Virus record (IMG/VR): IMGVR_UViG_3300007513_002727
Location: 28,943-92,942 of that record
From: a virus
Strand: one strand, 5' to 3'
DNA length: 64,000 nucleotides
Positions 8,957 to 57,733 of this stretch are shown here, in pieces. A model generated the notes under the pieces. The model saw only the letters and a program-made list of their open reading frames with translations. It searched no databases and was not told where the DNA came from. Numbering within the stretch: position 1 is the first letter of the stretch; every line of letters starts with the position of its first letter. A program made the position numbers and the translations under genes.

Positions 8957-9376
8957 ATGAATAATAACCTTCGGCAGGTGGATCTTGTATCAACAACGAA
9001 AGGTTTGTTGAACCTTCATCAATTTTGGAACAAACCTATTGTGGTATTCAACAGTGCATCTTTCTGTGGCTTTACTAATCAGTTGTCCGCTTTTGAAGAA
9101 CTGCACAAGACAGGCAAAGTAATACCTATTGCCCTGCCAACAAATGAATTTGGTGCCCAAGAACCTGGACACTCTCTAGAAATCAATCAACACTACTGTA
9201 AGAAATACAACGTGACATATCCAATAATGGACAAGACAGATCTAGAACATAAATTTTTTAAAACTTTTGGCATACCAGACTGGAACTTCAATAAATGGTT
9301 ATTTGATTCTAAACACAATTTTGTTAAGAAGTTTAACAGTAGAACCCAACCAATGAAAATGCTTGAATATGTCTGA
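8957..9376 (+). CDS. Glutathione peroxidase-like protein (Cys type)
   Basis: Signature motifs NSASFCGFT, PTNEFGAQEPG and WNFNKWL. Confidence 0.85.
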   Translation: MNNNLRQVDLVSTTKGLLNLHQFWNKPIVVFNSASFCGFTNQLSAFEELHKTGKVIPIALPTNEFGAQEPGHSLEINQHYCKKYNVTYPIMDKTDLEHKFFKTFGIPDWNFNKWLFDSKHNFVKKFNSRTQPMKMLEYV

Positions 9377-10637
9377 TACATTTTGCACTTATCCGTTTAA
9401 ACATCTCTACATAGAAACCAATGGACGACAGAAGTTGTGTTGTATGCCTAACGAGTTCATAGAAAAGAATGATGGATACAGACAGTACCAAATGAAGGAT
9501 GGGATCTTTTCTAGTTGGAACAGCGACTACATGAAAGACACAAGGTTGAAAATGCTTAACGGACAAAAAGTTAGTGCCTGTGAAAAATGTTACTTACTAG
9601 AATCTCATGGACAAAAAAGTTTAAGGCAAAACGGCGGACGAGGTAAGCCGGAATGGTTTAAAGATGATATAGAGTCCAATGGCACTATGAAGACCATGCC
9701 GACTGATATAGAACTGCACTTTGGAAACGTCTGCAACTTGAAATGTAGGATGTGCAGTCATTATTTCTCACACATGATCGGCAAAGAGCTGTTGGCTGTG
9801 CAACAAGATGATCCAGATTTTTTCCGTTGGATACAGGAGCAAGGAGGCAACGTTAATAATTGGGCCACTGGAGATTTGACAGAAGTCTATGACTGGTACA
9901 AGGACAAGTCTGTATTAGAAAACACGTTTGAAGAAATATACAATCATGTACAAAGTATAAGAGTGATTGGTGGAGAACCAACAATTATTCCTGAGTTCTG
10001 GCAGATGTTCAAATATCTCAAATCCAAGAACAGTCTCAAAGACAAGTTTATAAAAATCACCACAAACGGTACTAACACAAATCCAAAGATGACCGAATGG
10101 TTTGCTGAAATGAAAGGTGTAGAGATTATGATAAGTCTCGACGGACTTGATCTTAGAAACAGGTATATCAGGTACCCATCAAACTGGCAGGCAATAATGA
10201 AGAACATTAGAGAATACAAAGCAATCGCAAACCTACATCCATCTGTGAGACCATTTGTGGCACCAACGCCACAAATATTAAATGTAGATCAATTAACTGA
10301 TTTCTGTATATTCTTCGAGAACGAAGAAGTCGCCGTTGGAATAAATCCAGATGTTGTCAGTCCCAAGATATGTAATTTTAATTATTTCCCAATGGAGTAT
10401 AAAAAGATTGTAGTTGATAAATTGAACACTAACCTCGCAAAGGTCAAAAACAACACCAACAGAACACACATTGAAAACACTATTAAAGTCCTACAGCAAG
10501 ATTTCAATAAACAAGAAATAGATCAAAACATAAGAAACTTTGTCAAATACAACGATTACATGGATAAGTTTAGAAACACAGATTCATGGAGAGACTTGTT
10601 ACCAGAACTTGCAGAAGTTATAGAAAAAAGATTATAG
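9369..10637 (+). CDS. Radical SAM protein with an N-terminal twitch/SPASM-like Cys domain
   Basis: CNLKCRMC and GGEPT; N-terminal C-x-YPF...CC...CEKC. Confidence 0.85.
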   Translation: MSDTFCTYPFKHLYIETNGRQKLCCMPNEFIEKNDGYRQYQMKDGIFSSWNSDYMKDTRLKMLNGQKVSACEKCYLLESHGQKSLRQNGGRGKPEWFKDDIESNGTMKTMPTDIELHFGNVCNLKCRMCSHYFSHMIGKELLAVQQDDPDFFRWIQEQGGNVNNWATGDLTEVYDWYKDKSVLENTFEEIYNHVQSIRVIGGEPTIIPEFWQMFKYLKSKNSLKDKFIKITTNGTNTNPKMTEWFAEMKGVEIMISLDGLDLRNRYIRYPSNWQAIMKNIREYKAIANLHPSVRPFVAPTPQILNVDQLTDFCIFFENEEVAVGINPDVVSPKICNFNYFPMEYKKIVVDKLNTNLAKVKNNTNRTHIENTIKVLQQDFNKQEIDQNIRNFVKYNDYMDKFRNTDSWRDLLPELAEVIEKRL

Positions 10638-11930
10638 GTCTTTAACAATATCGTATATCTGTGGATAAACTTTCTTCCAGTTAGTACCTCTCCTACGATC
10701 TAACTCTGTCAAATAGATTTTCAGTTGTTTTTGTCTTATAAGACTAGGTTCTCTATTTTCAAACTCAATCATATTACCTTCCATAAATTTTTTATGATTT
10801 ACCTTAACTGAATCTGGGTAACCATAAGAATTAGTATCAAACAACTCTATTGCTTCTTGTAATCCCCATTCGTTAATTTTTTTACCAAATATTCCAGGAT
10901 ACAAATAAGGCTTAGGCCCAATATCATGCTGGTTTGCTTTCATCATACTCCAATACACAGGTCTAATCTTTGACCAGTTGTTAATCATTTTAACCATTTC
11001 AGGCATACCTGATACTGCTGTCACTGTTAATGCAGAATTTATTCCTTGTAACGTTTCTGTTTCATTTAACACATATTCAAAATTCTTTTGCAATAATGGT
11101 AAGTTAATTCCAGTACGCACATACTCTCCTGCAGGTCCCCAAGCATCACATGATGCAATAATCTGTAGTTTATCTAATCTACCTTGCTTAACCATTTTAT
11201 CTAATCTACTAACCCACATTTTATATCTATCGTGTTCTACATTATGATTACTAAAAAAGCATAAAGTTAAATCAGGCAGTTCCCTTTTCTCTAAAAACTC
11301 TATAAATCTAAATGTTTCTTTTTGTAAAAATGGTTCTCCTCCTAATACAAAAACTTTATGTAATTTGTGTATATTATTTTCAAACCATTTAAACAATAAT
11401 TCTGTATGCTCTTCTATCTTAGGATTCTTTTTCCACCATGGACTTATATCAACTCCTTCTTTATTAAAGTCTCCAAATTTTTCTTCTTCTTGTTGTATTT
11501 GTGAACTAAAATGAGCACCACAATAGATACATTTTTGATTACAAGTATTTCCCCAATACACTTCTAATTGCCTTGGAGTAACATCAACTGCTTCTAAATC
11601 ATTATCCAACTCCGGTGGAGCAGTAGTACCTTCCAAGTGTAGATGTATTTGTCTGTCACTAGTTCCACCAGCTTCTTCAATGTGTTTACAGTGTTCACAA
11701 CCACGTCCTGGCCATTCACCTTTTAACATTTTACGTCTTGCTTCTAACTTGGCCGGTAAGTTATGAAAATTTAATTCACCATTACGTATTTCTAATGGAT
11801 CTCCCTGTACTCTGTGACAACTTGCACTTACTCCATCCGTAAGATATACTGTGGAATGTGTCCACTTTAACTGACATGGTAATCCTTTTTTAATAGGAAA
11901 CGGTTTTGGTGGTTGCTTTGATATACCCAT
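10632..11930 (-). CDS. Radical SAM protein with an N-terminal twitch-like domain
   Basis: CNQKCIYC, GGEPF, CQLKW...SCHRV...CEHC. Start moved to ATG 11930 (MGISKQP). Confidence 0.85.
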   Translation of the reverse strand: MGISKQPPKPFPIKKGLPCQLKWTHSTVYLTDGVSASCHRVQGDPLEIRNGELNFHNLPAKLEARRKMLKGEWPGRGCEHCKHIEEAGGTSDRQIHLHLEGTTAPPELDNDLEAVDVTPRQLEVYWGNTCNQKCIYCGAHFSSQIQQEEEKFGDFNKEGVDISPWWKKNPKIEEHTELLFKWFENNIHKLHKVFVLGGEPFLQKETFRFIEFLEKRELPDLTLCFFSNHNVEHDRYKMWVSRLDKMVKQGRLDKLQIIASCDAWGPAGEYVRTGINLPLLQKNFEYVLNETETLQGINSALTVTAVSGMPEMVKMINNWSKIRPVYWSMMKANQHDIGPKPYLYPGIFGKKINEWGLQEAIELFDTNSYGYPDSVKVNHKKFMEGNMIEFENREPSLIRQKQLKIYLTELDRRRGTNWKKVYPQIYDIVKDL

Positions 11931-11948
11931 TTGTATATAATTATGTAT

Positions 11949-12653
11949 ATGAAAATCTCCGAAGATGTTCTTAAAAGCAAAGGTATAGCATATATACAAA
12001 AATTTCCATACAATGAATTGTCTAAAACATCTAAAAATGGTAAAAGATATTACTCTACTCCAGATGGTAGAACAGTACCTTCTGTGACCACAGTGTTATC
12101 TGCTACTAAAGACATGACACAATTACACGCATGGCGTAAAAGAGTTGGTGAAGCAAGAGCACAACAAATTACAACAGAGTCAGCTAACATTGGAACAGTG
12201 ATGCACGGCTCATTAGAAAAACACGTAAAAGGTATTGAAAGAAAACCTGGGTCAAATCTTATACATCAAAAAGCACACGCAATGGCAAATGTTATTATTG
12301 ATAATGGATTAAAAAATGTTAGTGAAGTATGGGGATCAGAAGTATCATTACACTACCCAGAATTATATGCAGGAACAACTGACTTGGTTGGTGTATATAA
12401 AGGTGAACCGGCTATAATGGATTTCAAACAAGCACGTAAATTAAAAAAGAAAGAATGGGTAGAAGATTACTATCTTCAATTGGTTGCATATTCTGAAGCA
12501 CATAATAAACAATACGACACGCAAATTAAATCAGGTAGAGTCTTTATATGCACACAAAACAACGAATTTCAAACATTTGATATAGACAACTATGACCATT
12601 GGGTAGGACAATGGTATAGTAAATTGGAACAATACTACAAGTCTATCCTTTAA
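11949..12653 (+). CDS. PD-(D/E)XK exonuclease (marine T4-like phage type)
   Basis: PSVTTVLS, GTVMH, YAGTTDLVG, IMDFKQ and QLVAY. Confidence 0.85.
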   Translation: MKISEDVLKSKGIAYIQKFPYNELSKTSKNGKRYYSTPDGRTVPSVTTVLSATKDMTQLHAWRKRVGEARAQQITTESANIGTVMHGSLEKHVKGIERKPGSNLIHQKAHAMANVIIDNGLKNVSEVWGSEVSLHYPELYAGTTDLVGVYKGEPAIMDFKQARKLKKKEWVEDYYLQLVAYSEAHNKQYDTQIKSGRVFICTQNNEFQTFDIDNYDHWVGQWYSKLEQYYKSIL

Positions 12654-19754: not shown

Positions 19755-20345
19755 TTATTCCAACAGCTCGTGAATACCGTAATATAAGAAGTAAATTGCT
19801 AGGCCAGTAAATATCCAACGACTAGCTCTCCATATTTTAGCAACTGGAATTTTTCTAATTTGTTTTGATGCTACTAGGCCGACTATAAGCAAAGCACCCA
19901 ATCCAATCACAGCACCTAATCCAATACTCATTACAGATGTACCTGCGTACATTAATGCTGTAAGAAATGCTACAATTTCTGCGCCTTCTCTAAACACGGT
20001 AAGAAATACAATTAATGCCAATGCCAATATTGGTCCATTACTTTTTAAATTAGCCTGAATAATTTTTGTATGTTGTACTGCTCCATGACAGAACCATGCT
20101 GTCCAAAACAATAATCCAGAGGCGGCCAGTGCCGTCCATCCTTCTACTGCTTCAAAGTCGTTTGCAATGAACTGTTGAGCAAAGTATCCTAATATCACTG
20201 CACAAACAAGTGCTAATGCTGTTGATCCTAATATTGTTATTTTTTGTCTATAATTGGTTACCATTAGCCAAGCCATCTGTACTATTAGATATGCTTCTAA
20301 GCCTTCTCTAAACCAAATAAACGTAGGTGCTAATGTTCCTGTCAT
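19755..20345 (-). CDS. FTR1-family iron permease
   Basis: Two RExxE motifs (FREGLEA, FREGAEI) and about six transmembrane helices. Confidence 0.9.
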   Translation of the reverse strand: MTGTLAPTFIWFREGLEAYLIVQMAWLMVTNYRQKITILGSTALALVCAVILGYFAQQFIANDFEAVEGWTALAASGLLFWTAWFCHGAVQHTKIIQANLKSNGPILALALIVFLTVFREGAEIVAFLTALMYAGTSVMSIGLGAVIGLGALLIVGLVASKQIRKIPVAKIWRASRWIFTGLAIYFLYYGIHELLE

Positions 20346-20419
20346 AATATTAGTATATTGCGAATAATATGCAATCGCAAGTATTTATTTCTATTTCGGT
20401 AATCTAATTTAAATGTGAG

Positions 20420-20791
20420 TTATTTCAACTCTACAGTTCCGCCGGCTTCTTCTAACTGCTTTTTAAGTTTTTCAACTTCTTCTTTTTCAATATCTTCTTT
20501 AACTGGTTTTGGTAAATCCTCAACAAAATTCTTGGCTTCTATTAACCCTAATCCTAATATATCTTTAATTGCTTTTAATACTGGAATTTTTTTGTTCTCA
20601 CCAAATCCTGTTAGCATAACGGTTGCAGTTGCTTTCTCTTCTGCTGGTGCTGATGCTGATGCTTGGGCAGGTGCTGATTGTAAGTTATCTAGGTCTATGT
20701 TCCACTCTTTGGCTAGTTTTTTAGATAGGTCTAGTGCTTCTAGAACTGTAAGTTGCCCTAGTTCCTTCACTAATGTATCTATATTTGCCAT
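20420..20791 (-). CDS. rplL: Ribosomal protein bL12 (L7/L12)
   Basis: LTVLEALDLSKKL N-terminal domain, Ala-rich hinge, and KIPVLKAIK..LGLGLIEAK...LEEAGGTVELK. Confidence 0.93.
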   Translation of the reverse strand: MANIDTLVKELGQLTVLEALDLSKKLAKEWNIDLDNLQSAPAQASASAPAEEKATATVMLTGFGENKKIPVLKAIKDILGLGLIEAKNFVEDLPKPVKEDIEKEEVEKLKKQLEEAGGTVELK

Positions 20792-20800
20792 TATTTGTTA

Positions 20801-20935
20801 TTATTTTTTTCGTTTACCCATGTAATGCTCAGATGGTTCGTAGTTCCATCGTTTGCCATGATGTCCACGGATATCTGCATACCACATTCTAAGTCTTACT
20901 ATAAATTTTCGAATTGCTCTATTTCTGATTGTCAC
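20801..20935 (-). CDS. Small basic protein (44 aa; not in ORF track)
   Basis: GTG start abuts the upstream stop. MTIRNRAIRKFIVRLRMWYADIRGHHGKRWNYEPSEHYMGKRKK* fills the gap before rplL. Confidence 0.7.
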   Translation of the reverse strand: MTIRNRAIRKFIVRLRMWYADIRGHHGKRWNYEPSEHYMGKRKK

Positions 20936-21139
20936 TTATCTTCCTATCTTCTTTTTTCTACCAATTGGTAATTTTTGTTCTTTAACGAAAACCTCCCCTT
21001 TTTTCGTCTCCCACTCAATAGTTACCATCGGAGCCTTAGAAGATGCTTGAAACGACTTTAGAGCTTTCTTAAATGATGTTGCCTCAATTATTTTTTCTTC
21101 TGTTCCAGATATAATTTTAAATTCTCTCATTTTTGACAT
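20936..21139 (-). CDS. Small basic protein (67 aa)
   Basis: First gene of the minus-strand operon, behind TTGACA-17-TACATT. Confidence 0.65.
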   Translation of the reverse strand: MSKMREFKIISGTEEKIIEATSFKKALKSFQASSKAPMVTIEWETKKGEVFVKEQKLPIGRKKKIGR

Positions 21140-21147
21140 AATAATTT

Positions 21148-21191
21148 AATGTAACATAAGATTGACTTTTTGTCAACTGTATGCTTAAATA
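21148..21191. promoter_or_regulatory. Divergent promoter with palindromic -35 boxes (TTGACT-TTT-TGTCAA)
   Basis: Minus strand: TTGACA 21176-21171 and TGnTACATT. Plus strand: TTGACT 21162-21167 and TAAATA 21186-21191, just before tmRNA. Confidence 0.6.
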
Positions 21192-21196
21192 TTAAT

Positions 21197-21492
21197 AAGT
21201 TTGTTGACTAATAATTAATAAGCGGACAAGACGAGAGTTCGAATCTCTCCACCTCCACCAAATTTTGGTGGCTTATGTAATCCCTTTCGGGGGTGTTATT
21301 GGAAATCGATTGACGTCTAAACTTGTTACGAGAACTTGGACATGGTACTGACCTAACAGGCCGTTTTTAAATGCAAACAAAAGAGCATTAGGATTTGCTG
21401 ACTTTACAGTTGGTATGTCTGAATTGAGATTAGCGGCGTAATAACTGTTTAATTTCTGGGGTTTGGCCCACCTCGCAACAGAACGGGCCACT
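21197..21492 (+). ncRNA. ssrA: Circularly permuted (two-piece, alphaproteobacterial-type) tmRNA
   Basis: Acceptor piece: T-arm GAGAG-TTCGAAT-CTCTC and CACCTCC-A-CCA, ending at 21260. Coding piece starts GGGGGTG at 21289, giving the G3.U70 alanine identity pair. Tag 21373-21441 reads ANKRALGFADFTVGMSELRLAA*. 3' hairpin TGGCCC...GGGCCA. Confidence 0.95.
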
Positions 21493-21573
21493 TCATTTAA
21501 AACAACATATAACTTATACCGTCATATAATTGATGCAACTATTGATTTAAATAATTGCGTCAAGGGGGAGGGT

Positions 21574-21885
21574 ATGTTTAAAAAGGCACAAAAACGAACA
21601 AATTATTGGTCTAAGATCAGAAAGAAGGCACCTAAAGTCCCTGATATAACTTGTCCTGACATTGATTGGGTAGTAAATCAATTAGAAAAAGCCATAGGCA
21701 AATCAATAACACAAACACAGTTTAAAAGAATAGAAAAAAAGATGGAAAAATTAAGAATAACAAACGAACAATTAAGAGAAAGCGGAATATACTGGCATGA
21801 CGCTTGTAAAGAAACTGTTCGTGATTTACTTGGAAAGAAAAAGAACTCTGATACACCGTGGTTTTATAGGAGCTCTTTGGATTAG
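21574..21885 (+). CDS. Hypothetical protein
   Basis: SD GGGGAGG before ATG 21574. The longer ORF-track version overlaps tmRNA. Confidence 0.65.
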   Translation: MFKKAQKRTNYWSKIRKKAPKVPDITCPDIDWVVNQLEKAIGKSITQTQFKRIEKKMEKLRITNEQLRESGIYWHDACKETVRDLLGKKKNSDTPWFYRSSLD

Positions 21886-21890
21886 ATAAT

Positions 21891-22094
21891 ATGTGGAAAG
21901 TACTTGTTATATTATGTATGGTTGGGTATGATTGCTCAGCATTTCAACAAAGCCCAATGCAGTTTTATGAAACCTATGAAGAGTGTCTTATTGTTGCTCG
22001 TCAAAAACGGGACCTCTTAATAATGAAATATGCAGAACATGGTTATTATATAACAGAATCAAAAGCAGTTTGTGAACAACAACCAGTAACTTAA
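21891..22094 (+). CDS. Small Cys-containing secreted/membrane protein
   Basis: Hydrophobic N-terminus; F/Y-x-T-x-x-x-C ... C pattern. Confidence 0.6.
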   Translation: MWKVLVILCMVGYDCSAFQQSPMQFYETYEECLIVARQKRDLLIMKYAEHGYYITESKAVCEQQPVT

Positions 22095-22286
22095 ATGAAA
22101 TGGGTATTAATAATATATTTTTTTATTAGTGGTCCTAATGGTGGATGGACAGAAACAGATAGAACTTTTTACCAAACTAAACAACAATGTATAGAATATA
22201 GAGATTTTTTCAATGCCCTTCCTAAACCTGGAACACTAATGTCTAGATGTAAAAGAGTCGATTCTGTAAGCAAATTGAATTTTTAG
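22095..22286 (+). CDS. Small secreted protein, possibly related to 21891..22094
   Basis: MKWVLII...FYQTKQQC...SRC compared with MWKVLVI...FYETYEEC...AVC. Confidence 0.6.
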   Translation: MKWVLIIYFFISGPNGGWTETDRTFYQTKQQCIEYRDFFNALPKPGTLMSRCKRVDSVSKLNF

Positions 22287-22325
22287 TTTTTATATCTACA
22301 CGCATAATAATATTTAATAGCAAGG

Positions 22326-22353
22326 TTGACTCTTATTAAAATTCTGTTATAAT
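22326..22353 (+). promoter_or_regulatory. Sigma70-like early promoter
   Basis: TTGACT-16-TATAAT with an extended TG. Confidence 0.75.
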
Positions 22354-22432
22354 AGTTAGATAATTGGGTCATTAATGTATGCCCTAGGCACTAATGTACA
22401 TTGATAGACACTTAATATAGGATTAAAATATT

Positions 22433-48161: not shown

Positions 48162-48797
48162 ATGAAAATTGAACTAATAGATACAATGGGTACAGACTTA
48201 ACAGTGGTAAATGCCGCTAGGGTTTCTTACGCAAAAACTAAAGAACAGTTTGAAGATAACGATGAAAAGTTAATTGCATTTTTGGCAAAACATAACCACT
48301 GGTCTCCGTTTGCACATACATCATTACAATTTAGAATTAAAGCACCTGTGTTTGTTGCAAGACAATTAGTTAAACACCAAGTTGGATTAAGTTGGAACGA
48401 AGTTAGCAGACGTTATGTAGACTTTCCACCTGAAGTATACAAACCAGAATCATGGAGAGGACGTCCTATTGATTCTAAACAAGGATCTGCAGGCACAGTA
48501 GATTTAGGACATACTGTTAATCATAACTTAGAAACAGTAACAGAAAGTTGTTTAATACTTTATAACACATTGATTGATAAAGGTGTTGCACCAGAACAAG
48601 CAAGAATGGTATTACCGCAATCAATGATGACTGAATGGTATTGGTCAGGAACGTTATATGCTTTTGCTAGAGTATGCAACTTAAGGTGTGCTAAAGACAC
48701 ACAAAAAGAAACACAAGACGTCGCGAATGCAATTGCGACGCATTGTAGCAAGGAATTTCCAATTAGTTGGAAGTACTTAATTGACAAACATACATAA
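48162..48797 (+). CDS. thyX: Flavin-dependent thymidylate synthase
   Basis: VVNAARVSY, HWSPF, RQLVKHQ..SWNEVSRRY and EQARMVLP. Confidence 0.97.
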   Translation: MKIELIDTMGTDLTVVNAARVSYAKTKEQFEDNDEKLIAFLAKHNHWSPFAHTSLQFRIKAPVFVARQLVKHQVGLSWNEVSRRYVDFPPEVYKPESWRGRPIDSKQGSAGTVDLGHTVNHNLETVTESCLILYNTLIDKGVAPEQARMVLPQSMMTEWYWSGTLYAFARVCNLRCAKDTQKETQDVANAIATHCSKEFPISWKYLIDKHT

Positions 48798-48808
48798 TAG
48801 TATATAAT
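48781..48808 (+). promoter_or_regulatory. Sigma70-like promoter for the suf operon
   Basis: TTGACA-16-TATAAT; ATG 8 nt downstream. Confidence 0.7.
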
Positions 48809-48816
48809 ATACACAA

Positions 48817-49023
48817 ATGATAAAAGAAGCACTTATAAAAAAACTAGAAGGCGATATTGCTAAAATAGAAGCTAACATTGTAACTTACCTAAGCAATCCT
48901 ATTTCTGTAGTAGCAGATCATATTGATTATATTACTCCTATTGAAAAGGAATTAGAAAAGTTATCTGCGGCGAAAGGTAAATTAGTATCTTTAAAAAATA
49001 TTAAATTTAAGTTAGATGAATGA
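48817..49023 (+). CDS. Small coiled-coil hypothetical protein
   Basis: [17 protein letters not shown]...YL.NP...H; first gene of the suf operon. Confidence 0.65.
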
Positions 49024-50446
49024 TGTACTTCAAGACCGACTTAACAAAAAATATGATGCTGGGTTTACAACAAACGTTGAATCAGTAACATTACCTCCAG
49101 GCCTTAACGAAGACATAGTAACACAAATCTCAAAAATTAAAAAAGAACCTAAATGGTTGCTTGAATTTAGATTAAAAGCATACCAACGATGGAAAATTTT
49201 AAAACAGCCTGATTGGGCAAATCTTAATATTAAACCTATAGACTATCAAGCAATATCATATTACTCAGCACCAAAGCCAGGTCCTAAATCATATGATGAT
49301 GTAGATCCTGAAATTAAAAAAGACTTTGAAAAGTTAGGCATACCATTAGCAGAAAGAGCCGCACTAGCAGGTGTAGCCGTTGATGCAGTATTTGATTCTG
49401 TATCTATTGCAACTACATTCAAAGATAAGTTAGCAGAACTAGGAATTATATTTTGTTCATTCTCAGAAGCAGTACAAAAACATCCTGATCTAGTAAAAAA
49501 ATATATGGGCTCTGTTATTCCAATTACAGACAATTATTTTGCAACATTAAATTCTGCTGTCTTTACAGATGGAACTTTTGTTTATGTTCCTAAAGGAGTA
49601 AGATGTCCTATGGAACTATCTACATACTTTAGAATCAATGCGGCTAACACAGGACAATTTGAACGGACTTTAATTATAGCTGACGAAGGAAGTTATGTAA
49701 GTTATTTAGAAGGCTGTACTGCACCAATAAGAAAAGAAAGTCAATTACACGCCGCCAACGTAGAACTTGTAGCATTAGATGATGCAGAAATAAAATATTC
49801 AACAGTACAAAATTGGTACCCAGGAGATAAAGATGGCAAAGGCGGCATATACAATTTTGTAACTAAACGTGGAAAATGTAAAGGAACAAACTCAAAAATT
49901 TCTTGGACACAAGTAGAAACAGGATCAGCTATTACTTGGAAGTATCCAAGTTGTATATTACAAGGAGATAATTCTACTGGTGAATTTTATTCTGTTGCTG
50001 TAACAAACAATTATCAACAAGCAGATACAGGTACTAAAATGATACACCTAGGCAAAAATACAAAATCAACTATTGTATCTAAAGGAATTTCGTTAGGACA
50101 CTCATCAAATACATATAGAGGTTTAGTAAAAATTAATAAAAATGCTGACAATTCAAAAAACTTTACTCAATGCGATTCATTAATGCTAGGTAATAATTGT
50201 TCTGCTAGAACTATACCATATATTGAAAATAAAAATGTATCTAGTAATTGCAGTCACGAAGCAACTACATCCAAAATTAATGATGAACAATTATTTTATG
50301 CAAGGCAACGTGGACTAGACGAAGAAAATGCTACTAATTTAATTGTAGCAGGATTCTGTAAACAAGTATTTCAAAACTTACCTATGGAGTTTGCAGTAGA
50401 AGCCAATAAACTATTAGAAGTTAGTATGGAAGGAGCAGTTGGATAA
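49016..50446 (+). CDS. sufB: Fe-S cluster assembly protein SufB
   Basis: [36 protein letters not shown] and MEFAVEA. Confidence 0.97.
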
Positions 50447-50874
50447 TGGCAAATAGATTTCATTTAGCAATACCGGCTGGAGATATAGATACGTCAATAA
50501 AATTTTATTGTGACATATTAGGCTGTAAAAGAGGTATGGCAGAATTTAAGTATCCAGATGCTTGGGCAGACATTGACTTTTGGGGCAACGAATTAACACT
50601 ACACGCAACAGATCCTAACAAAAAAAATATAGGTGAAAGACACAATGTAGATATGGGTAATGTATCTGTTCCTCACTTTGGTGTGCATTTAGACGCACAA
50701 ACATTTAAAAATGTAAAAGAAAGACTAATACAAAATAATATAAAATTTATAGATCCACCTTTTATAAGATTTAAAGGTGAAAGCAGAGAACAGGAAACAA
50801 TGTTTATCGAAGACCCAAATGGCAACTGCTTAGAAATTAAAACAATGAGGAATCCTGATGAATTATTCAAATAA
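50446..50874 (+). CDS. VOC/glyoxalase-family metalloprotein
   Basis: FHLAIP, DFWGNELTLH, VPHFGV and EDPNGNCLEIK. Confidence 0.9.
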   Translation: MANRFHLAIPAGDIDTSIKFYCDILGCKRGMAEFKYPDAWADIDFWGNELTLHATDPNKKNIGERHNVDMGNVSVPHFGVHLDAQTFKNVKERLIQNNIKFIDPPFIRFKGESREQETMFIEDPNGNCLEIKTMRNPDELFK

Positions 50875-51265
50875 ACTTACAGAATATAAAAATAATATCG
50901 AAGCCTTACAAGAAATCGATAATTTAGAAGTTTATAGATGGTTAATTTCACTTGGTGCAAAGTTAGACGATGATCCTTTAAGTGAAGAAAAACGTATTGA
51001 CAAAAATAAAGTTAGTCGTTGTCAATTTGACTTATACGTTGATTTTGAAGATGGCAAATTTAAAGCATGGAGTAATGCCGCAATAGCAGGTGGCTATGCT
51101 TATATATTGTTAGATATTTTTAATTCACTACCTCCAACAACAAAAATTACAGTAGAAGATTTTCAACAAATTAAACTAGACAAACTATTAACAATGAATA
51201 GAACAACCGGCTTCTATCAAATGATTGAAATGATTATAAAGAAAATACAAAATGCTAAAAATTAA
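50858..51265 (+). CDS. sufE: SufE-like sulfur acceptor
   Basis: YRWLISLGAKL...NKVSRCQ...S.AAIAGG...LTMNRTTG. Confidence 0.8.
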   Translation: MNYSNKLTEYKNNIEALQEIDNLEVYRWLISLGAKLDDDPLSEEKRIDKNKVSRCQFDLYVDFEDGKFKAWSNAAIAGGYAYILLDIFNSLPPTTKITVEDFQQIKLDKLLTMNRTTGFYQMIEMIIKKIQNAKN

Positions 51266-51989
51266 AAATTTAAAAGTATCAATTAATAATAAAGAAATAA
51301 TAAAAGATTTAAATCTTGAAATTAAACAAGGCGAGATTCATGCCCTCATGGGTCCAAACGGTTCTGGCAAAAGTACTTTGTCTAATGTTTTAGCTGGAAA
51401 AGATGGCTATAATGTTACAGGAGAGATACTTTACAAAGGAGAAGATCTTTTAAAAATGTCAATAGAAGAAAGAGCAAGAAAAGGATTGTTTATGGCTTTT
51501 CAATATCCTATAGAAATTCCTGGTGTTAATACAATTAATTTTTTAAAAAGTTCTTTAAATGTGGTTCGAAAATCTAATAAAAAAGAAGCAATAGATACTT
51601 TTGAATTTTTAGATTTAGTAAAAGAAAAAGCTAAAGCTCTTAATGTTAATGGTTCTATACTTAATAGACATCTAAACGTAGGGTTCTCGGGTGGAGAAAA
51701 AAAGAAAAATGAAATATTACAAATGTCTGTTTTAGAACCTATGTTTGCTATTTTGGACGAAACAGATTCTGGATTAGACATTGATTCTTTAAAAATAATT
51801 TCTAATGGTATTAATTCTTTAAGAAGTATATGTAGATCTTTTTTAATTATTACACACTATCAACGTTTATTAGAACACATTAAACCAGACTTTGTTCACG
51901 TACTTGCAGATGGAAAAATAATCAAAACTGGTTGCAGTGAATTAGCTGAAGAATTAGACAAAGTAGGATATGGAGATAAAAATAGTTAG
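51252..51989 (+). CDS. sufC: Fe-S assembly ATPase SufC
   Basis: GPNGSGKST, AFQYPIEIPG, GFSGGEKK, LDETDSGLDID and ITHYQRLL. Confidence 0.97.
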   Translation: MLKIKNLKVSINNKEIIKDLNLEIKQGEIHALMGPNGSGKSTLSNVLAGKDGYNVTGEILYKGEDLLKMSIEERARKGLFMAFQYPIEIPGVNTINFLKSSLNVVRKSNKKEAIDTFEFLDLVKEKAKALNVNGSILNRHLNVGFSGGEKKKNEILQMSVLEPMFAILDETDSGLDIDSLKIISNGINSLRSICRSFLIITHYQRLLEHIKPDFVHVLADGKIIKTGCSELAEELDKVGYGDKNS

Positions 51990-53643
51990 AATAGTTCTAA
52001 TATTATTCTTTGCATGGATTACTACGATTCAAGCAGAGATTGTAACAATAGAAAAACGTGGTGTTGCAGATGATATTATAACTTGTGAATGGGAAAACCA
52101 AGCAGGTGTTCCTTGTGTTACAATTAGCAAATCATTACCCAATTCAAATGCAATATCAGATAAAGTTTCTCCCACAACTGTAATCACTAAAAAACAAATT
52201 GAAGAAAATAATTTAATTGACTTACCTAAAGTTTTAAATTTTGTTAATGGTATCAATGTAACACAATCTGGATCAACTGGACAACAAACGTCTGTGTTTA
52301 TGAGAGGTACAAACTCAAACCATACATTAGTTTTATTAAATGGCATACCTATTAATGATTTTTCTACTCCAACAGGAGCATTTGACTTTGGACAAGACTT
52401 TATGTCTACTGTTACGCAAGTTGAAGTTTATAAAGGAAGTGCTGGTGCTCACTTCGGTGCTGATGCTATTGGTGGTGCTATTAATTTTGTAACTACTGTT
52501 GACTATGAAAACAAATTTTCAGTTGGTGGCAATGGTGACAGTAAAACTATACAAGGAAATTACACAAAAGTTTTAAACGACTGGCATATAAACGTACAAG
52601 GTGGAACACACGAATCTGAAACAGTATCAGCATTATCAGGTGGTGCTGAAACAGATGGAACTAAAAATAAATCAATTGGCGTTAATATTATAAAATGGTT
52701 TTCAGACAAATTAAAATTTAGATCTAGTTTGTTTACACGAAACACATTTACAGAGTTAGATGGACATTCGTTGGCTATTGAAAATGGATTTAGCGATAAT
52801 TCGTTTTATGCTTTTCAAACCGGATTTGATTATATAACTAAAGACTCCATCAACTCCCTAACACTTCATACACACGAATACGATAGAGAATATGAGTCTG
52901 ACAATTACAATTCTAAATCTTATACTATCAGAACAGAACACCAAACTAAAAAGTATGGATTAGGATTTGATTACAAATACGATCAATCACTAACTGCTGA
53001 TAATGATAATGTTGGCTTATTTGGAAATTTTAATTACAACATTTTTTCATTTCATGCAAGAAAAGATAATGACAACGATAGTTATAAAGTAGGATTTTTT
53101 AAAGAGATAGCACCTAACTTTAATATTAGAGGTAACCATTCAACAGGATATAAAAATACAACTCTTTATACACTAGAAGAACAAAGTAATTCAAACGAAT
53201 TAAGTTTTGATTATAATGATTTGACATTATCTCTTTTTCAATCTGATATTGGTGATTTAAACACAGATGGCGTAGAACTATCTTATAATATTGACAACTT
53301 TACAATATATGGATCACATTTAAACAGTAAGAAAAATGATACAATTCAATTAAGACGTCCTGAATGGATTCTTGGTGTTAATCATAATACACTATTACCT
53401 GACAATTTCCAATTAATTACAAATTACAAATTTGTAGGAGAGCATCTAGACGTACATAATTCCAATTGGTCTACTATTCCTATGCCAGAAACACACTTAT
53501 TAGACATAGGTATAACAAAAAACTATTGGGGTTACGAGTTAGGTTTAAATATTAATAACATATTAGATGAAGATTATGAAGCACCACATGGTTTTAGTCA
53601 AAATGGTCGAAACCTTAATTTTATCTTTAAAAGAAAATTCTAA
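51970..53643 (+). CDS. TonB-dependent outer-membrane receptor (BtuB-like plug)
   Basis: Plug GQQTSVFMRGTNSNHTLVLLNG...VEVYKGS...GADAIGGAIN; NNILDEDY; C-terminal Phe. Confidence 0.9.
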   Translation: MEIKIVRIVLILFFAWITTIQAEIVTIEKRGVADDIITCEWENQAGVPCVTISKSLPNSNAISDKVSPTTVITKKQIEENNLIDLPKVLNFVNGINVTQSGSTGQQTSVFMRGTNSNHTLVLLNGIPINDFSTPTGAFDFGQDFMSTVTQVEVYKGSAGAHFGADAIGGAINFVTTVDYENKFSVGGNGDSKTIQGNYTKVLNDWHINVQGGTHESETVSALSGGAETDGTKNKSIGVNIIKWFSDKLKFRSSLFTRNTFTELDGHSLAIENGFSDNSFYAFQTGFDYITKDSINSLTLHTHEYDREYESDNYNSKSYTIRTEHQTKKYGLGFDYKYDQSLTADNDNVGLFGNFNYNIFSFHARKDNDNDSYKVGFFKEIAPNFNIRGNHSTGYKNTTLYTLEEQSNSNELSFDYNDLTLSLFQSDIGDLNTDGVELSYNIDNFTIYGSHLNSKKNDTIQLRRPEWILGVNHNTLLPDNFQLITNYKFVGEHLDVHNSNWSTIPMPETHLLDIGITKNYWGYELGLNINNILDEDYEAPHGFSQNGRNLNFIFKRKF

Positions 53644-53659
53644 TCTGTTATAATATAGT

Positions 53660-55204
53660 ATGAAACGAGTAGCACTCTTAATAGCACCACGAATACAAGA
53701 TGATTTTGGTTATACTCCTGCAGGTCCGGCTTTAGTAAAAGGATCAATTAAAAAAGCAGGACATGACTGTAAAATTTTTGATTTTAACAGTGATCTTGAA
53801 AGAGAATATCAAGATTCAGAAATAGTTCCAATTGATAATTGGTTTATGAATCACAATTTCTATTCTGATAAAATCTATAAAAAAATACATGCTTTAATAG
53901 ACAAGTGGACTGATGACGTCTTACAGTATGCACCAACCGACGTCGGAATAAGTGTATTTTCGTACAACAGTCAACGAGCAACTATAATGCTGGCAACAAC
54001 CTTAAAAAGTAAAAATCCAGATATAAAAGTTTTTATTGGTGGAGCAGGATTAAACACTGATAACAAGTTTGGCAAATATTGTATGGATGAAAAAATTATT
54101 GACTGCTGGATACGTGGAGAGGGTGAACTATCAGTTCTAGCATATCTAGAAGGAAATCTTTCACATCCTGGACTTAATGGAATTCCACCAAAACAAATAG
54201 ACAACATTGACGATTTAGAATTTCCTGATTACAGTGATTATGAACTAGCCTCATATACTAACAAAAAAGGATTAGTTGCTTTACCTATTACAGGATCTAG
54301 AGGTTGTGTTAGAGCCTGTACATTTTGTGATATTGCAAGTATGTGGCCAAAATATAAATTTAGATCAGGTAAAAGTATTGCAAAAGAAATTAAAACACAG
54401 GTTAAGAAGTATGGTGCTAAAGCATTTAGATTTACCGATAGTTTAATTAATGGTTCAATGAAAGCATTTAGAGATATGACATACGAACTATCTAAATTTA
54501 GAATGGCTATAAAACCTGAAGATAGATTTATTTGGGATTCTCACTTTATTGTAAGAAATGAAAAACAAATGCCACCTCAGGACTTTAAAGTAATGGCAGA
54601 GTCTGGTGCAGGAACTTTACTAATAGGAGTAGAATCTGGATCAGCAAAAGTAAGAGAACATATGAAAAAAGGTTATACTGACGAAGATTTACATTACAGT
54701 CTCGAACAAATATTTAAAAACAATATTAAAGTAAGATTTTTAATGATAATAGGGTACCCTACTGAAACAGAAGAGGACTTTCAACAAACATTAGACTTTT
54801 TTAATAGGTATGCTGAATATGGTCGCCAAGGATTAGTTGAGGAAGTAAATTTAGGACTTACTTTAAATCTTTTACCTAACACACCTTTATATGATAATGC
54901 TGAAAAGTTTGGACTTGATACAACAAAAGATCACATAAATGATTGGATATGTACTCAAAACCCAACATTAGATTTTAAAGAACGATTAAAAAGAAGAATA
55001 AATGCTCAACACTATGTTGAAAACTTAGGTTATAAAGTTTTTGAATCTAAAAATTATACTAGAGCATTGTCAATTGCTTGGAACGAAGTTAGTAAAATAC
55101 AAATAGATAACACTATTAAAATTGATGCTAGTAAAATAAAATTTGATAGAGAAAAAGGAATATTGGAACAGTCACCAGACTTTGATCCATTAAGAACTTA
55201 TTAA
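53660..55204 (+). CDS. B12-binding domain radical SAM protein (class B-like)
   Basis: N-terminal cobalamin domain (VGISVF...IGG...RGEGE); SRGCVRACTFC; GVESGS; IGYPTETEEDF. Confidence 0.9.
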   Translation: MKRVALLIAPRIQDDFGYTPAGPALVKGSIKKAGHDCKIFDFNSDLEREYQDSEIVPIDNWFMNHNFYSDKIYKKIHALIDKWTDDVLQYAPTDVGISVFSYNSQRATIMLATTLKSKNPDIKVFIGGAGLNTDNKFGKYCMDEKIIDCWIRGEGELSVLAYLEGNLSHPGLNGIPPKQIDNIDDLEFPDYSDYELASYTNKKGLVALPITGSRGCVRACTFCDIASMWPKYKFRSGKSIAKEIKTQVKKYGAKAFRFTDSLINGSMKAFRDMTYELSKFRMAIKPEDRFIWDSHFIVRNEKQMPPQDFKVMAESGAGTLLIGVESGSAKVREHMKKGYTDEDLHYSLEQIFKNNIKVRFLMIIGYPTETEEDFQQTLDFFNRYAEYGRQGLVEEVNLGLTLNLLPNTPLYDNAEKFGLDTTKDHINDWICTQNPTLDFKERLKRRINAQHYVENLGYKVFESKNYTRALSIAWNEVSKIQIDNTIKIDASKIKFDREKGILEQSPDFDPLRTY

Positions 55205-55797
55205 TGAAAATTCAAATTATTATAGAACCAACATTTAGTAAACAATGGCCTAAATTAAGAATAAGGTTAAATGATACTGACTGGTTTAATGATTTTTGTA
55301 AACCCAATGAAGGAAAACATTTTGTTTTAACAATGTATCCTGAAGAAATTAACCTTCAAGACTCTAATGCAATATCAATTAAACATTATGATAAATCTAG
55401 AAACGATACAATAGTTGACAAAGAAGGCAATATTGAAAAAGATAGAGCAATAATATTAAAATCAATATCTTTTAACGACTTAAAAGTACCAGAAGTTATT
55501 CTATACAAACAACGTTTCTTTCCTGACTGGCCTGATCAACCATTCTACACCACGAACAATTTATATTTTGGATACAATGGGGAATATTTTTATAATTTTA
55601 AAAAAGATGTTAACAAAATGTACTATGAAAATTTAATACAAAAAGAATTACTAGCAAATATTAATAATAAAAAAATTATGACTTTACCAAGTGGAGAGGA
55701 AATAGAAAGTTTTGAATTTACAGGAAAATTAGTTAGTGGTAGCGAAAAAGAAAACATTACCTTAGATGAATTGTATAACATAGTTAATAAAAAATGA
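55204..55797 (+). CDS. Hypothetical beta-domain protein
   Basis: WPKLRIRLND...KHYDK..NDT...ILKSI...NNLYFGYNG. Confidence 0.6.
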   Translation: MKIQIIIEPTFSKQWPKLRIRLNDTDWFNDFCKPNEGKHFVLTMYPEEINLQDSNAISIKHYDKSRNDTIVDKEGNIEKDRAIILKSISFNDLKVPEVILYKQRFFPDWPDQPFYTTNNLYFGYNGEYFYNFKKDVNKMYYENLIQKELLANINNKKIMTLPSGEEIESFEFTGKLVSGSEKENITLDELYNIVNKK

Positions 55798-56210
55798 AAA
55801 TAAAATTAAATTTAGAAACCGAATATAATAAAACTGCTCCACAATGTAGAATTTTTAGTCTAAAAGATTCTGAAACTGTTCAACTTGAAAAAGAATCAGT
55901 TGTAGAATTAGATTTTAACTTACAAAATAAAGATACACTATCAATAAATTTTTTTAATAAAGATGGAGTTGACGATAATGTAATTAAAATTAATGAAATA
56001 CATATCGATGATATTAATATACAACATTTTATATACAATAGTACATTTTTTCCAGAATATAATGAAAATTGGTATGCTGAACAAGTTGTAAAGCCTCCTA
56101 AGTTTTATTCTCCTTGTACAGAATTGCGACACAATGGTATATGGATTTTAAATATTACTACACCCATATGGAAAATGATGATGAACGAATGGATTAAAGA
56201 TGACAGATAA
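55794..56210 (+). CDS. Hypothetical beta-domain protein, paralog of 55204
   Basis: LSINFFNKD...IKINEIHIDDI...HNGIW. Confidence 0.6.
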   Translation: MKIKLNLETEYNKTAPQCRIFSLKDSETVQLEKESVVELDFNLQNKDTLSINFFNKDGVDDNVIKINEIHIDDINIQHFIYNSTFFPEYNENWYAEQVVKPPKFYSPCTELRHNGIWILNITTPIWKMMMNEWIKDDR

Positions 56211-56925
56211 TATTCCAAAATTACTACAAGATGCAATTAACGAAAACACTTACGACATCGATGTAATAACAAAGAATTTAAAACTGCCATGGCTTAAACT
56301 AGATCTCAAATTTGATCAACCTACTGACAAAGACATTAATGAATTGATTGCTACTGACGATTGGCGTAAAAAATGGAACTTTACAGGTTTAGAAAAGAAT
56401 GCATATCAAGTAAAAAATTGGAATGGTAATATTTTCTTTGGTCCTAAAGATTTCCAAAACTTTTTAAAAATATCTAACGACTTAGAACACGACCATGATG
56501 AAGATAGTAAATGTAGATTTTTTAGAAACAAAATAGAATACGATTGGTACGTTGATTCTAATAATTTTACAAGACAACAAGTTGAAAAATTACTTCCAGA
56601 TGTTAATGACATTAATATAGTAAATTCTTATACACTTCCACCCGGAGGATACGTATTTCCGCATAGAGATTATGCTATTGATAAAATGGGTCTTGCAAAA
56701 TTATATGTTGCAATCAAATGGGGTGATGGTAATATTTTTGGACAATATGGCTGTGGTAATATTCCTATAAACGAAGGTGATATATTTTTAATTAACAATT
56801 ACACTCTTCCACATTGGGTTTATAATGGCAGTAAAGAAAACAGAATTGTAATTGATATAAGTGCTAATTTAAATTCTCCAAACATTAAAGAAAGTATTAT
56901 TAGGGCATTTAAAAAATGGAAATAA
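56200..56925 (+). CDS. Aspartyl/asparaginyl beta-hydroxylase-like Fe(II)/2OG dioxygenase
   Basis: LPPGGYVFPHRD...PHWVYNGSKENRI. Confidence 0.8.
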   Translation: MTDNIPKLLQDAINENTYDIDVITKNLKLPWLKLDLKFDQPTDKDINELIATDDWRKKWNFTGLEKNAYQVKNWNGNIFFGPKDFQNFLKISNDLEHDHDEDSKCRFFRNKIEYDWYVDSNNFTRQQVEKLLPDVNDINIVNSYTLPPGGYVFPHRDYAIDKMGLAKLYVAIKWGDGNIFGQYGCGNIPINEGDIFLINNYTLPHWVYNGSKENRIVIDISANLNSPNIKESIIRAFKKWK

Positions 56926-57482
56926 AAAACAACTACAAAAAAATTATAAACTTAAAAGAAAATTCAGTATTAAATTACAACTTAAAAGCAAACTCGTCTG
57001 CTTGTTTATTCTTTTGTGATTATGCTGGTTTCATAACAGAAATTAACATAAACCTAGATACAAATTCTTCATGTGAGTTATATGGTTTCTTTAAAAATAC
57101 TAATGAAAACACTGCTGTTATTACTAAAGTAATACACAAAGGTAATAATTCAAAATGCGACCAAGATTTTAGATTTGTAAACAAAAATAGTATTAGTTCT
57201 TTTAAAGGTTTAATATCTGTTCCTAAACATATTAAAAATTGTGAAAGTCATATGACAAACAAGAATCTTTTACTAGATAATACTTCTCAAGCATTCGCAA
57301 AACCAGAATTAGATATTAAAAATTCTAATGTTGTTTGTACACATAGCAGTACAACTGGCACGTTAGATGAAGATCAAATATTTTATATTCAAAGCAGAGG
57401 ACTTTCTTACGAGGAATCTGTTAATATGCTCATAGAAGCATTTTATCAAGATATTAAAAGTAAAATGGAGGCAAGTTTATGA
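56916..57482 (+). CDS. sufD: SufD-like protein (C-terminal half only)
   Basis: SSFKGLI...NKNLLL...AKPELDI...VCTHSSTTGTLDEDQIFYIQSRGL. Confidence 0.85.
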   Translation: MEIKNNYKKIINLKENSVLNYNLKANSSACLFFCDYAGFITEININLDTNSSCELYGFFKNTNENTAVITKVIHKGNNSKCDQDFRFVNKNSISSFKGLISVPKHIKNCESHMTNKNLLLDNTSQAFAKPELDIKNSNVVCTHSSTTGTLDEDQIFYIQSRGLSYEESVNMLIEAFYQDIKSKMEASL

Positions 57483-57733
57483 AAGTAATAGAAATATTAA
57501 TATATGGTTTAGGTGTTCTAGAGTTTCCGTTTGATGACACTCAAAAATGTAGACCACAAGCAGAAGAACTTCTACAAGAAAAAACAATTTGGGTTGATGA
57601 AATTAATCGACCCGAATTTTGGGCAGAAGGCGATTACTGGATTGGCGACGATGGTAAACATTACCGTCTTGCTGGTTTTAGATGCATTGATAAGGAAACC
57701 GGAAAAGAAGTTGGCAAATCAGGATGGTACTAA
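57479..57733 (+). CDS. Hypothetical protein
   Basis: ATGA-coupled ORF. Confidence 0.55.
   Translation: MKVIEILIYGLGVLEFPFDDTQKCRPQAEELLQEKTIWVDEINRPEFWAEGDYWIGDDGKHYRLAGFRCIDKETGKEVGKSGWY

Follow-up and report, generated by a model that had tools for sequence, protein, structure and literature searches.

Marine viruses that carry genes for iron-sulfur (Fe-S) cluster assembly have been described, as marine T4-like environmental viral genomes have Fe-S assembly auxiliary metabolic genes (AMGs), for A-type carriers and IscU, together with many radical S-adenosylmethionine (SAM) genes (Nishimura et al. 2017, PMC5332604). A survey of pelagimyophages (PMC7029224) reports 'substrate transport' as well as cassettes of radical SAM genes and does not name BtuB, TonB, B12 or Suf in its main text, and B12 regulation of btuB in SAR11 bacteria was stated in 2022 to be unknown (PMC9296465). 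The locus considered here lies in a 64,000-nucleotide stretch of a viral record (positions 28,943 to 92,942 of IMG/VR record IMGVR_UViG_3300007513_002727), and 'the window' is used below for the whole of that stretch. In it a suf block for Fe-S cluster assembly is interrupted by the gene for a BtuB-like outer-membrane receptor, the gene for a B12-type radical SAM enzyme and three further genes. The explanation considered probable, though held with some reserve, is that a SAR11 suf operon was captured, that a cassette was later inserted in it, and that cofactors would be supplied from the one operon that resulted.

Four features of the window are new: two modules are physically fused, the suf block matches a host operon gene for gene, an insertion has left a scar, and a riboswitch has been lost. 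In the literature searched, coverage of which was partial and is no proof of absence, no description was found of viral btuB or viral sufBCD, of phage SufB-C-D-E sets with a miniature SufD, or of phage outer-membrane nutrient receptors. As a precedent for phage sufBCDS, 'Microcystis phage MaAM05' (L002, MW495066.1 255795-273876) was considered and rejected; the stretch, with panB, panC and pxpA, and sufBCDS-iscU at the end of the record, looks bacterial.

The gene chain and its host counterpart

Twelve open reading frames (ORFs) follow one another on the + strand between 48817 and 57733, nearly all of them overlapping by 1-20 nucleotides or standing at most 16 nucleotides apart. Their order is u68-sufB-VOC-sufE-sufC, then BtuB-like receptor, B12-type radical SAM, u197, u138, u241, short sufD and u84. 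With the promoter and the two repeat copies, the features are:

48781..48808, + strand: sigma-70-type promoter, TTGACA-16-TATAAT, 12/12 matches, ahead of the gene chain
48817..49023, + strand: u68, small conserved phage ORF, 8-nucleotide overlap with the sufB start, no Pfam match
49016..50446, + strand: sufB, Fe-S scaffold subunit, NF008773 at 869 bits (cut-off 717)
50446..50874, + strand: VOC/glyoxalase-fold protein, PF00903
50858..51265, + strand: sufE, sulfur-transfer protein, PF02657 at 60.7 bits, persulfide Cys in SRCQFD
51252..51989, + strand: sufC, ATPase, TIGR01978 at 344.1 bits (cut-off 212.8)
51970..51982, + strand: left copy of a 13-nucleotide direct repeat, ATGGAGATAAAAA, the former sufD start and now the receptor gene start
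51970..53643, + strand: BtuB-like outer-membrane receptor, short viral form of 557 amino acids, with signal peptide, plug and barrel of about 22 strands
53660..55204, + strand: class-B-type radical SAM enzyme, Radical_SAM PF04055 at 69.6 bits, CxxxCxxC at residue 216
55204..55797, + strand: u197, cassette protein with a predicted N-terminal beta-sandwich, following the radical SAM gene in relatives
55794..56210, + strand: u138, cassette protein, weak paralogue of the N-terminal part of u197
56200..56925, + strand: u241, cassette protein, candidate AspH-like cupin oxygenase, no Pfam match
56916..56928, + strand: right copy of the direct repeat, ATGGAAATAAAAA, the present sufD start
56916..57482, + strand: short SufD, 188 amino acids, equal to the C-terminal half of SufD and matching the last 60% of the SufBD core
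57479..57733, + strand: u84, small conserved phage ORF, last gene of the chain, predicted soluble

An earlier note, made by reading this DNA alone, had given the gene list, its coordinates and two overlaps of reading frames. ORF calls and profile searches agree with it on all of these, the overlaps being 20 nucleotides for sufC and the receptor gene and 10 nucleotides for u241 and sufD, and the gene identities can be regarded as established at that level. From sufB to u84 the only terminator-like site found is a weak one within sufB itself, and the suf genes and the cassette apparently share one transcription unit. The small genes at the two ends of the chain both have viral homologues, those of u68 being 43-65% identical (viral contigs L172, L173 and L179) and those of u84 57-60% identical (L083, L086 and L173).

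A counterpart of the suf block is present in a Pelagibacteraceae single-cell genome, where SAR11 contig L167 has an operon of SufB-VOC-SufE-SufC-SufD(417 amino acids)-SufS. (The SufS of that operon, 415 amino acids, is putative, its naming being from operon position, size and similarity to genes of viral suf operons, with no family model.) To these host proteins the phage SufB, VOC, SufE and SufC are 72, 80, 63 and 66% identical, respectively. Because the order in the host operon is the same, the presence of a VOC gene and the position of sufE are host features and not phage inventions. More widely, identity of the phage SufB is 72-74% to SAR11 SufB and 70-84% to the SufB proteins encoded on other viral contigs, and the VOC protein is 80% identical to the product of the same-position gene both in L167 and in viral contigs L211 and L244. 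So far as descent can be read from sequence and gene order, the match establishes that the suf block is of SAR11 origin. The VOC/glyoxalase-fold gene, which lies between sufB and sufE in the SAR11 operon too (L167:3946-4377), is the best-conserved gene of the phage copy.

Membership of the SUF system is indicated by SufB and SufC, both of which pass curated equivalog cut-offs. Two further components were not found: in the whole 92.9-kb record, estimated at about 39% of the genome, PF00266 (for SufS) gave no match and no SufA was detected, so that an absence reported earlier for the window extends to the entire record. A putative SufS is present in the host.

The phage SufD has 188 amino acids, versus 417 in the host, and does not qualify as a full-length SufD. 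It aligns to residues 304-398 of E. coli SufD and to the host SufD from about residue 192 to the end, and TIGR01981 matches it at 126.6 bits (cut-off 222) over model positions 121-266 only, which bears out the first description of it as cut to its C-terminal half. The equivalents of E. coli Cys358 and His360 are retained, the latter being invariant in 25 of 25 viral and host SufD sequences compared, and so is the C-terminal region that binds SufC. The protein is 73% identical to the 192-amino-acid SufD of L211 and L244, and IMG/VR contigs have 16 distinct short forms of 143-196 amino acids, either beside SufB alone or in SufB-SufC-SufD-SufS(-SufE) operons; SufD of full length also occurs, in other viral contigs. 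On this comparison the short SufD is a form conserved among viruses, with the catalytic His in place, and not a product of decay. SufB and SufC may form a complex with it. In four viral contigs (L179, L180, L008 and L178) SufB and a short SufD occur without SufC, and because SufC is missing there they would have to borrow the host ATPase.

The insertion and its 13-nucleotide repeat

Viral contigs L211 and L244, of 95 and 103 kb respectively, carry sufB-VOC-sufE-sufC-sufD(192 amino acids) without interruption, the sufD start being 23 nucleotides before the sufC stop. Because two viral contigs have the operon in this form, the window can be described as that operon plus a five-gene insertion. 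At both junctions, 51970 and 56916, there is a 13-mer, ATGGARATAAAAA, with no other copy in the 64 kb (expected count 0.07; two matches in 0 of 100 shuffles). SufD begins MEIKNNYK..., and its first four codons (MEIK) also open the receptor gene, which continues with a normal signal peptide. Most simply read, five genes, for receptor, radical SAM enzyme, u197, u138 and u241, entered at the sufC/sufD overlap with duplication of the sufD start. The first overlap (51970/51989) is then the inherited sufC/sufD overlap, and the second (56916/56925) is new. Insertion and scar can both be treated as established by this comparison.

The interleaving had at first been taken for a module of cofactor self-supply. 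Among about 150 related viral loci (some 70 receptor loci and 80 SufB loci), Suf/B12 interleaving is present in no other, which does not indicate selection for a joint module. With the uninterrupted operon in two contigs and the scar at the junctions, it looks like a single insertion rather than a conserved module, and a 'module' in the sense of a selected unit is not supported.

A serious competitor, with a chance only somewhat short of even, is that the two supply lines are together by accident, the cassette having landed in a permissive and variable AMG hotspot and the fusion bringing no benefit of its own. That the arrangement is found only in this record is what such an accident would leave, and between ClpS and UGDH in close relatives (viral contigs L109, L122, L123/L151, L144 and L173) the order of receptor gene, radical SAM cassette, ThyX and Suf genes does vary widely; the junction, too, looks like one microhomology or duplication event. 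Yet no reading frame was broken by the insertion and translational coupling was kept at either end of it, riboswitch control was replaced by co-expression with suf genes, and Suf genes are near the receptor in L122 and L242 also. A class-B radical SAM enzyme, moreover, needs both cofactors, and co-expression would be at least not harmful.

The gene near the receptor in L122 is SufE-like. L242 is a viral contig of 328 kb. Two genes ahead of its SufB is the gene for a distantly related TonB-type receptor (27% identity, 604 amino acids), and SufC and a 192-amino-acid SufD come five genes later (L242:5321-15017), making it a second and independent case of a receptor near Suf.

The receptor, its relatives and the radical SAM enzyme

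For the receptor, the plug domain is recognized by PF07715 at 78.3 bits and the best NCBIfam model is that of BtuB itself, TIGR01779 at 111.6 bits, with NF007926 at 101.9. The AlphaFold model has a plug and some 22-23 predicted strands with short loops (predicted template modelling score, pTM, 0.72), and its top Foldseek match is E. coli BtuB (TM 0.77, E 1e-23). Relatives number thousands in metagenomes and are present in about 70 contigs of IMG/VR. The nearest cellular ones are Pelagibacteraceae receptors at 33-40% identity, and in a FastTree phylogeny the SAR11 receptors are the sister clade to an all-viral/metagenomic clade, within which forms of 610-636 amino acids are basal and forms of 517-563 amino acids are derived.

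Control of these relatives is pertinent. An AdoCbl-II riboswitch (RF01689) is directly upstream of the receptor gene in 4 of 8 SAR11 loci, at 85-99 bits, and precedes the viral receptor gene in 4 of 9 phage loci scanned; none was found in the window. (The SAR11 sites are L014:7806-7887, L025:7755-7835, L030:7843-7923 and L031:7743-7834, and those of phages L151:6440-6520, L109:7844-7922, L144:7777-7855 and L085:7898-7978.) Compared with these relatives, the receptor gene here has evidently lost its riboswitch, the place of which was taken, via the insertion, by coupling to sufC. Its relatedness to SAR11 and phage receptors that are under riboswitch control, to be regarded as established by the comparison, goes with the profile ranking and the predicted fold in bearing out the original assignment of the receptor to the BtuB type.

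The original reading had left open the alternative of an iron chelate, and in a wider form of it the receptor would import such a chelate, or haem, for Fe-S assembly. Such a role would suit a gene between sufC and sufD, the more so as TonB-dependent receptors mostly carry iron complexes, and there are weak NCBIfam matches to siderophore and haem receptors. The best of the iron-receptor models is at no more than 48 bits, so that BtuB models score twice any of them; in fold, iron receptors are six orders of magnitude behind BtuB in E-value. Host and phage relatives are behind cobalamin riboswitches, and the position in the suf operon is the result of a one-off insertion. Iron import is accordingly very unlikely.

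The other aspect of the B12 connection is the neighbouring enzyme. A B12-type radical SAM gene is within a few genes of the receptor gene in 6 of 8 SAR11 loci, in a surface-glycan island. A whole receptor gene is present at 63 viral loci; a radical SAM gene, classed as B-type by its N-terminal extension, adjoins it in 30 of them and is within six genes in 43. The linked enzymes are of different subfamilies (KedN5-like of 632 amino acids, 417-465 amino acids and 497-523 amino acids) and their genes are in different orientations, because of which the receptor appears tied to B12 dependence as such and not to one pathway. For giving up its reading the earlier note had asked that the receptor cluster with non-corrinoid transporters and be unlinked to the radical SAM gene in relatives; instead several unrelated linked arrangements were found, an outcome in favour of the corrinoid reading. 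Recurrent linkage is, like the kinship, established by comparison. The proposed import of a corrinoid for the phage's own enzyme is well supported on this comparative footing. (Co-occurrence of receptor and B12-type radical SAM in 151 SAR11 genomes is uninformative, as the phage query misses divergent host radical SAM proteins and the genomes are incomplete.)

A different main role, at the cell surface, can be argued from the length of the short viral receptors. These are 60-80 residues shorter than SAR11 and basal viral forms, with the losses mid-barrel, and the missing residues of the short receptor appear as gaps at successive turns between residues 311 and 441. BtuB is a classic phage and colicin receptor, and a loop-trimmed stand-in for the receptor of the host might block superinfection by other phages or keep progeny from sticking to cell debris; the lack of a nearby radical SAM gene in 20 of 63 viral loci is also consistent with a receptor that serves some purpose other than B12 supply. 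Nevertheless, the cobalamin riboswitch of relatives is a nutrient-homeostasis control, hard to reconcile with an exclusion protein; in 30 receptor sequences the plug and many residues of the barrel do not vary; and a receptor that could be replaced is present in only 10 of the 151 SAR11 genomes sampled. Remodelling of the surface is considered improbable.

Energy for import through the preferred corrinoid receptor is a less comfortable matter. At the expected TonB-box position there is a conserved C-x-W...P-C-V motif. Whether hosts have TonB-ExbBD had been raised at the outset, and the answer from five receptor-bearing SAR11 genomes (G001-G005, hosts of L013, L014, L023, L025 and L030) is one ExbD/TolR-type gene in each and no TonB_C found in any, the genomes being incomplete. 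In SAR11 loci the receptor gene is followed by that for a DUF6580 membrane protein. A comparison of SAR11 DUF6580 with PDB sequences, in which a link to BtuM was sought, gave nothing useful, and no mention of DUF6580 was found in the literature searched. A bolder proposal, that a minimal loop-trimmed corrinoid receptor works without classical TonB, gives B12 uptake to SAR11 cells that mostly lack a receptor, and in this lineage is hard-wired to Fe-S synthesis, with a single viral operon providing the two cofactors that the phage's class-B radical SAM enzyme needs, is speculative and on balance unlikely, if a shade less so than the surface role.

The radical SAM enzyme has its best NCBIfam matches among B12-dependent methyltransferase families, all of them under cut-offs (best 102.6 versus 600), and alignments to B12-radical-SAM families in NCBIfam cover its N-terminal part. 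Receptor-near radical SAM proteins of L014, L127 and L128 pass the B12-binding cut-off. The set rSAM-u197-u138-u241 recurs in L151 (80, 58, 50 and 67% identity), in L152 and, rearranged, in L153, with u197 always directly after the radical SAM gene. In L153, a viral contig of higher G+C (45%), the u138-u241 pair is tandem-duplicated ahead of rSAM-u197 (L153:2618-7129), which shows the four-gene cassette to move between unrelated phages.

The three partner proteins, u197, u138 and u241, have no family matches. Only viral or metagenomic relatives were found for u241 and u197; u241 is 67-69% identical in L151 and L152 and was not found in 151 SAR11 genomes. Its description as AspH-like has a language-model lead in its favour, as in look-alike viral clusters (Atlas) 10-26% of members have PF05118, but u241 has no Pfam or NCBIfam match of its own, and BLAST detects no similarity to the window's other oxygenase-like genes. 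The claimed paralogy of u197 and u138 holds in that similarity is detectable, though weak (25% identity, pairwise E 2e-4). A model of u197 (predicted local distance difference test, pLDDT, 81) has an N-terminal beta-sandwich with weak CBM60-like (E 2e-3) and C2-like matches, to be treated as a lead only. In other phages the receptor/radical SAM pair is beside aminotransferase-type genes like those of the window's sugar-type cluster (w30055), because of which there is a lean to a sugar or small molecule as substrate, and this is a guess.

The phage, the proposed course of events and described systems

The window is the last 64 kb of the 92.9-kb record, which is labelled provirus. Of the sequence 93% is coding, and small ORFs stand in long runs; PHROG matches include tail-spike-like and virion proteins and NrdAB, the window's auxiliary genes include DnaK, ClpX, ClpS and ThyX, and the best cultured match, for one backbone protein, is Pelagibacter phage Mosig. 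A DNA search of GenBank phages with the region gave no match. Upstream of the locus the order ClpX, ClpS, u114 (plus DnaK in L173) is kept in viral contigs of up to 172 kb, and so is UGDH, u543, u192 downstream (the contigs compared being those named above for the varied gene orders). Because these flanks recur in order, the locus can be placed within the phage backbone, in a stretch of variable auxiliary-gene content. By gene content and order, the window is assigned to a large, pelagimyophage-like SAR11 phage.

Is it phage DNA at all? The provirus label, the 63-80% identity and same order of suf block and SAR11 genes, and the presence of DnaK, ClpX and ClpS could all be cited for host chromosome at a provirus edge or for a phage/SAR11 assembly chimera. 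Identity to the host is, though, far below 100%, the flanks on both sides are common, in order, to five or more other viral contigs, which reach 172 kb, and the same operon is in the 95-103-kb viral contigs L211 and L244. G+C is even across the window and the 13-nucleotide repeat is too short to cause misassembly. A cellular or chimeric source is hardly credible.

Two side observations concern this phage. A permuted (two-piece) alphaproteobacterial tmRNA gene is at 21141-21492 of the window (RF04321 at 80.8 bits, RF01849 at 59.2 bits), one more reason to read the record as phage DNA, and a relative, L113, has such a gene also. Five radical SAM genes are in the record, three of them in the window. 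Apart from the one in the chain, two are convergent at window positions 9363-11999, and a second pair, with overlapping ends, is upstream of the window at record bases 20225-22399; a B12-binding domain is in none of these four and a SPASM domain in one.

The preferred explanation, capture followed by insertion, can be set out as follows. A phage ancestor would have captured part of a SAR11 suf operon, sufB-VOC-sufE-sufC-sufD, with SufD already cut to its C-terminal half, a form common to many marine phages. Later, in this lineage, a five-gene cassette would have been inserted exactly at the sufC/sufD overlap, duplicating 13 nucleotides, such that the receptor gene got the old sufD start codon and became translationally coupled to sufC. 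One transcript from the promoter at 48781 would then yield a SufB-SufC-mini-SufD scaffold, fed from host SufS through the phage SufE, and also the outer-membrane corrinoid receptor and, along with its partner proteins, the radical SAM enzyme that depends on B12 and [4Fe-4S]. Methylation or rearrangement of a small substrate, sugar-type or other, is probably what this enzyme does for the phage, and the record's four further radical SAM enzymes would draw on the Fe-S machinery as well. Expression from a single transcript, and a benefit of having two supply lines in one operon, are what we infer from this arrangement.

Several points weigh against that explanation. The receptor is far under the curated BtuB cut-offs (111.6 versus 599.7 bits; 101.9 versus 836) and its AlphaFold model, with a pLDDT of 68, has middling confidence. 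PF02310, for the B12-binding domain of the radical SAM enzyme, is at 27.2 bits, under the Pfam cut-off of 32.1, and at the 20 viral receptor loci already mentioned there is no radical SAM gene within 8 kb. TonB_C was not found in the phage record, nor in the five receptor-bearing SAR11 genomes (which are incomplete) even at E<=5, and the host partner DUF6580 was not found in the phage record. The interleaving is unique to this record, itself only about 39% complete. Each half of the cofactor-supply reading, taken alone, is nevertheless supported by comparison. Supply of Fe-S clusters by the phage for its own enzymes, as proposed at the outset, fits both the viruses of PMC5332604 and the five radical SAM genes; the part of that proposal which made it a module, in the sense of a selected unit, is not supported.

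The window is, in any case, a readable record of cassette building, in which a host operon was copied gene for gene and later received an insertion with a 13-nucleotide scar, and in which coupling with Fe-S genes took over control from a riboswitch. No bacterium of the sea is more abundant than SAR11, which is believed to require little B12 or none. Carriage of a B12-type receptor beside B12-type enzymes by a widespread family of its phages (about 70 contigs) would imply that viruses alter vitamin demand and uptake in SAR11 cells.

Comparison with described systems brings out what is shared and what is not. With the viruses of PMC5332604, a group that includes relatives of Pelagibacter phage HTVC008M, the record shares phage Fe-S assembly genes and several Fe-S-dependent radical SAM proteins; a SufB-SufC-SufD-SufE set, a B12 receptor and a fusion of both are not described there. 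With the E. coli-type SUF system (SufABCDSE; SufBC2D, PDB 5AWF, 2ZU0) it has in common SufB and SufC of equivalog grade, the SufE Cys and the C-terminal helical part of SufD. It differs in a SufD without about 190 N-terminal residues, in a VOC gene inside the operon (as in the SAR11 host), in having no SufS or SufA found in the phage record, and in the five foreign genes between sufC and sufD.

E. coli BtuB (PDB 1NQH, 2GSK; TIGR01779/NF007926) and the receptor share a signal peptide, the plug PF07715 and a barrel of about 22 strands (predicted here), and a cobalamin riboswitch precedes btuB in E. coli as it does the SAR11 and phage relatives of this receptor. The viral protein is only about 20% identical and has 557 amino acids compared with the 614 of the E. 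coli chain; it is virus-encoded and has a conserved Cys pair at the expected TonB-box position. The window's receptor gene, unlike btuB, is without a riboswitch and is fused to the sufD start, and no TonB was found in host or phage. Lastly, class B radical SAM methyltransferases (PhpK, KedN5 and the C-methyltransferases of ribosomally synthesized and post-translationally modified peptides; TIGR04479, NF033712, TIGR03975) have an N-terminal Rossmann-type B12-domain region and then a CxxxCxxC core, and the phage enzyme has such a core behind a putative B12-domain region. It reaches no family cut-off and differs from them in having three virus-specific partners, u197, u138 and u241.

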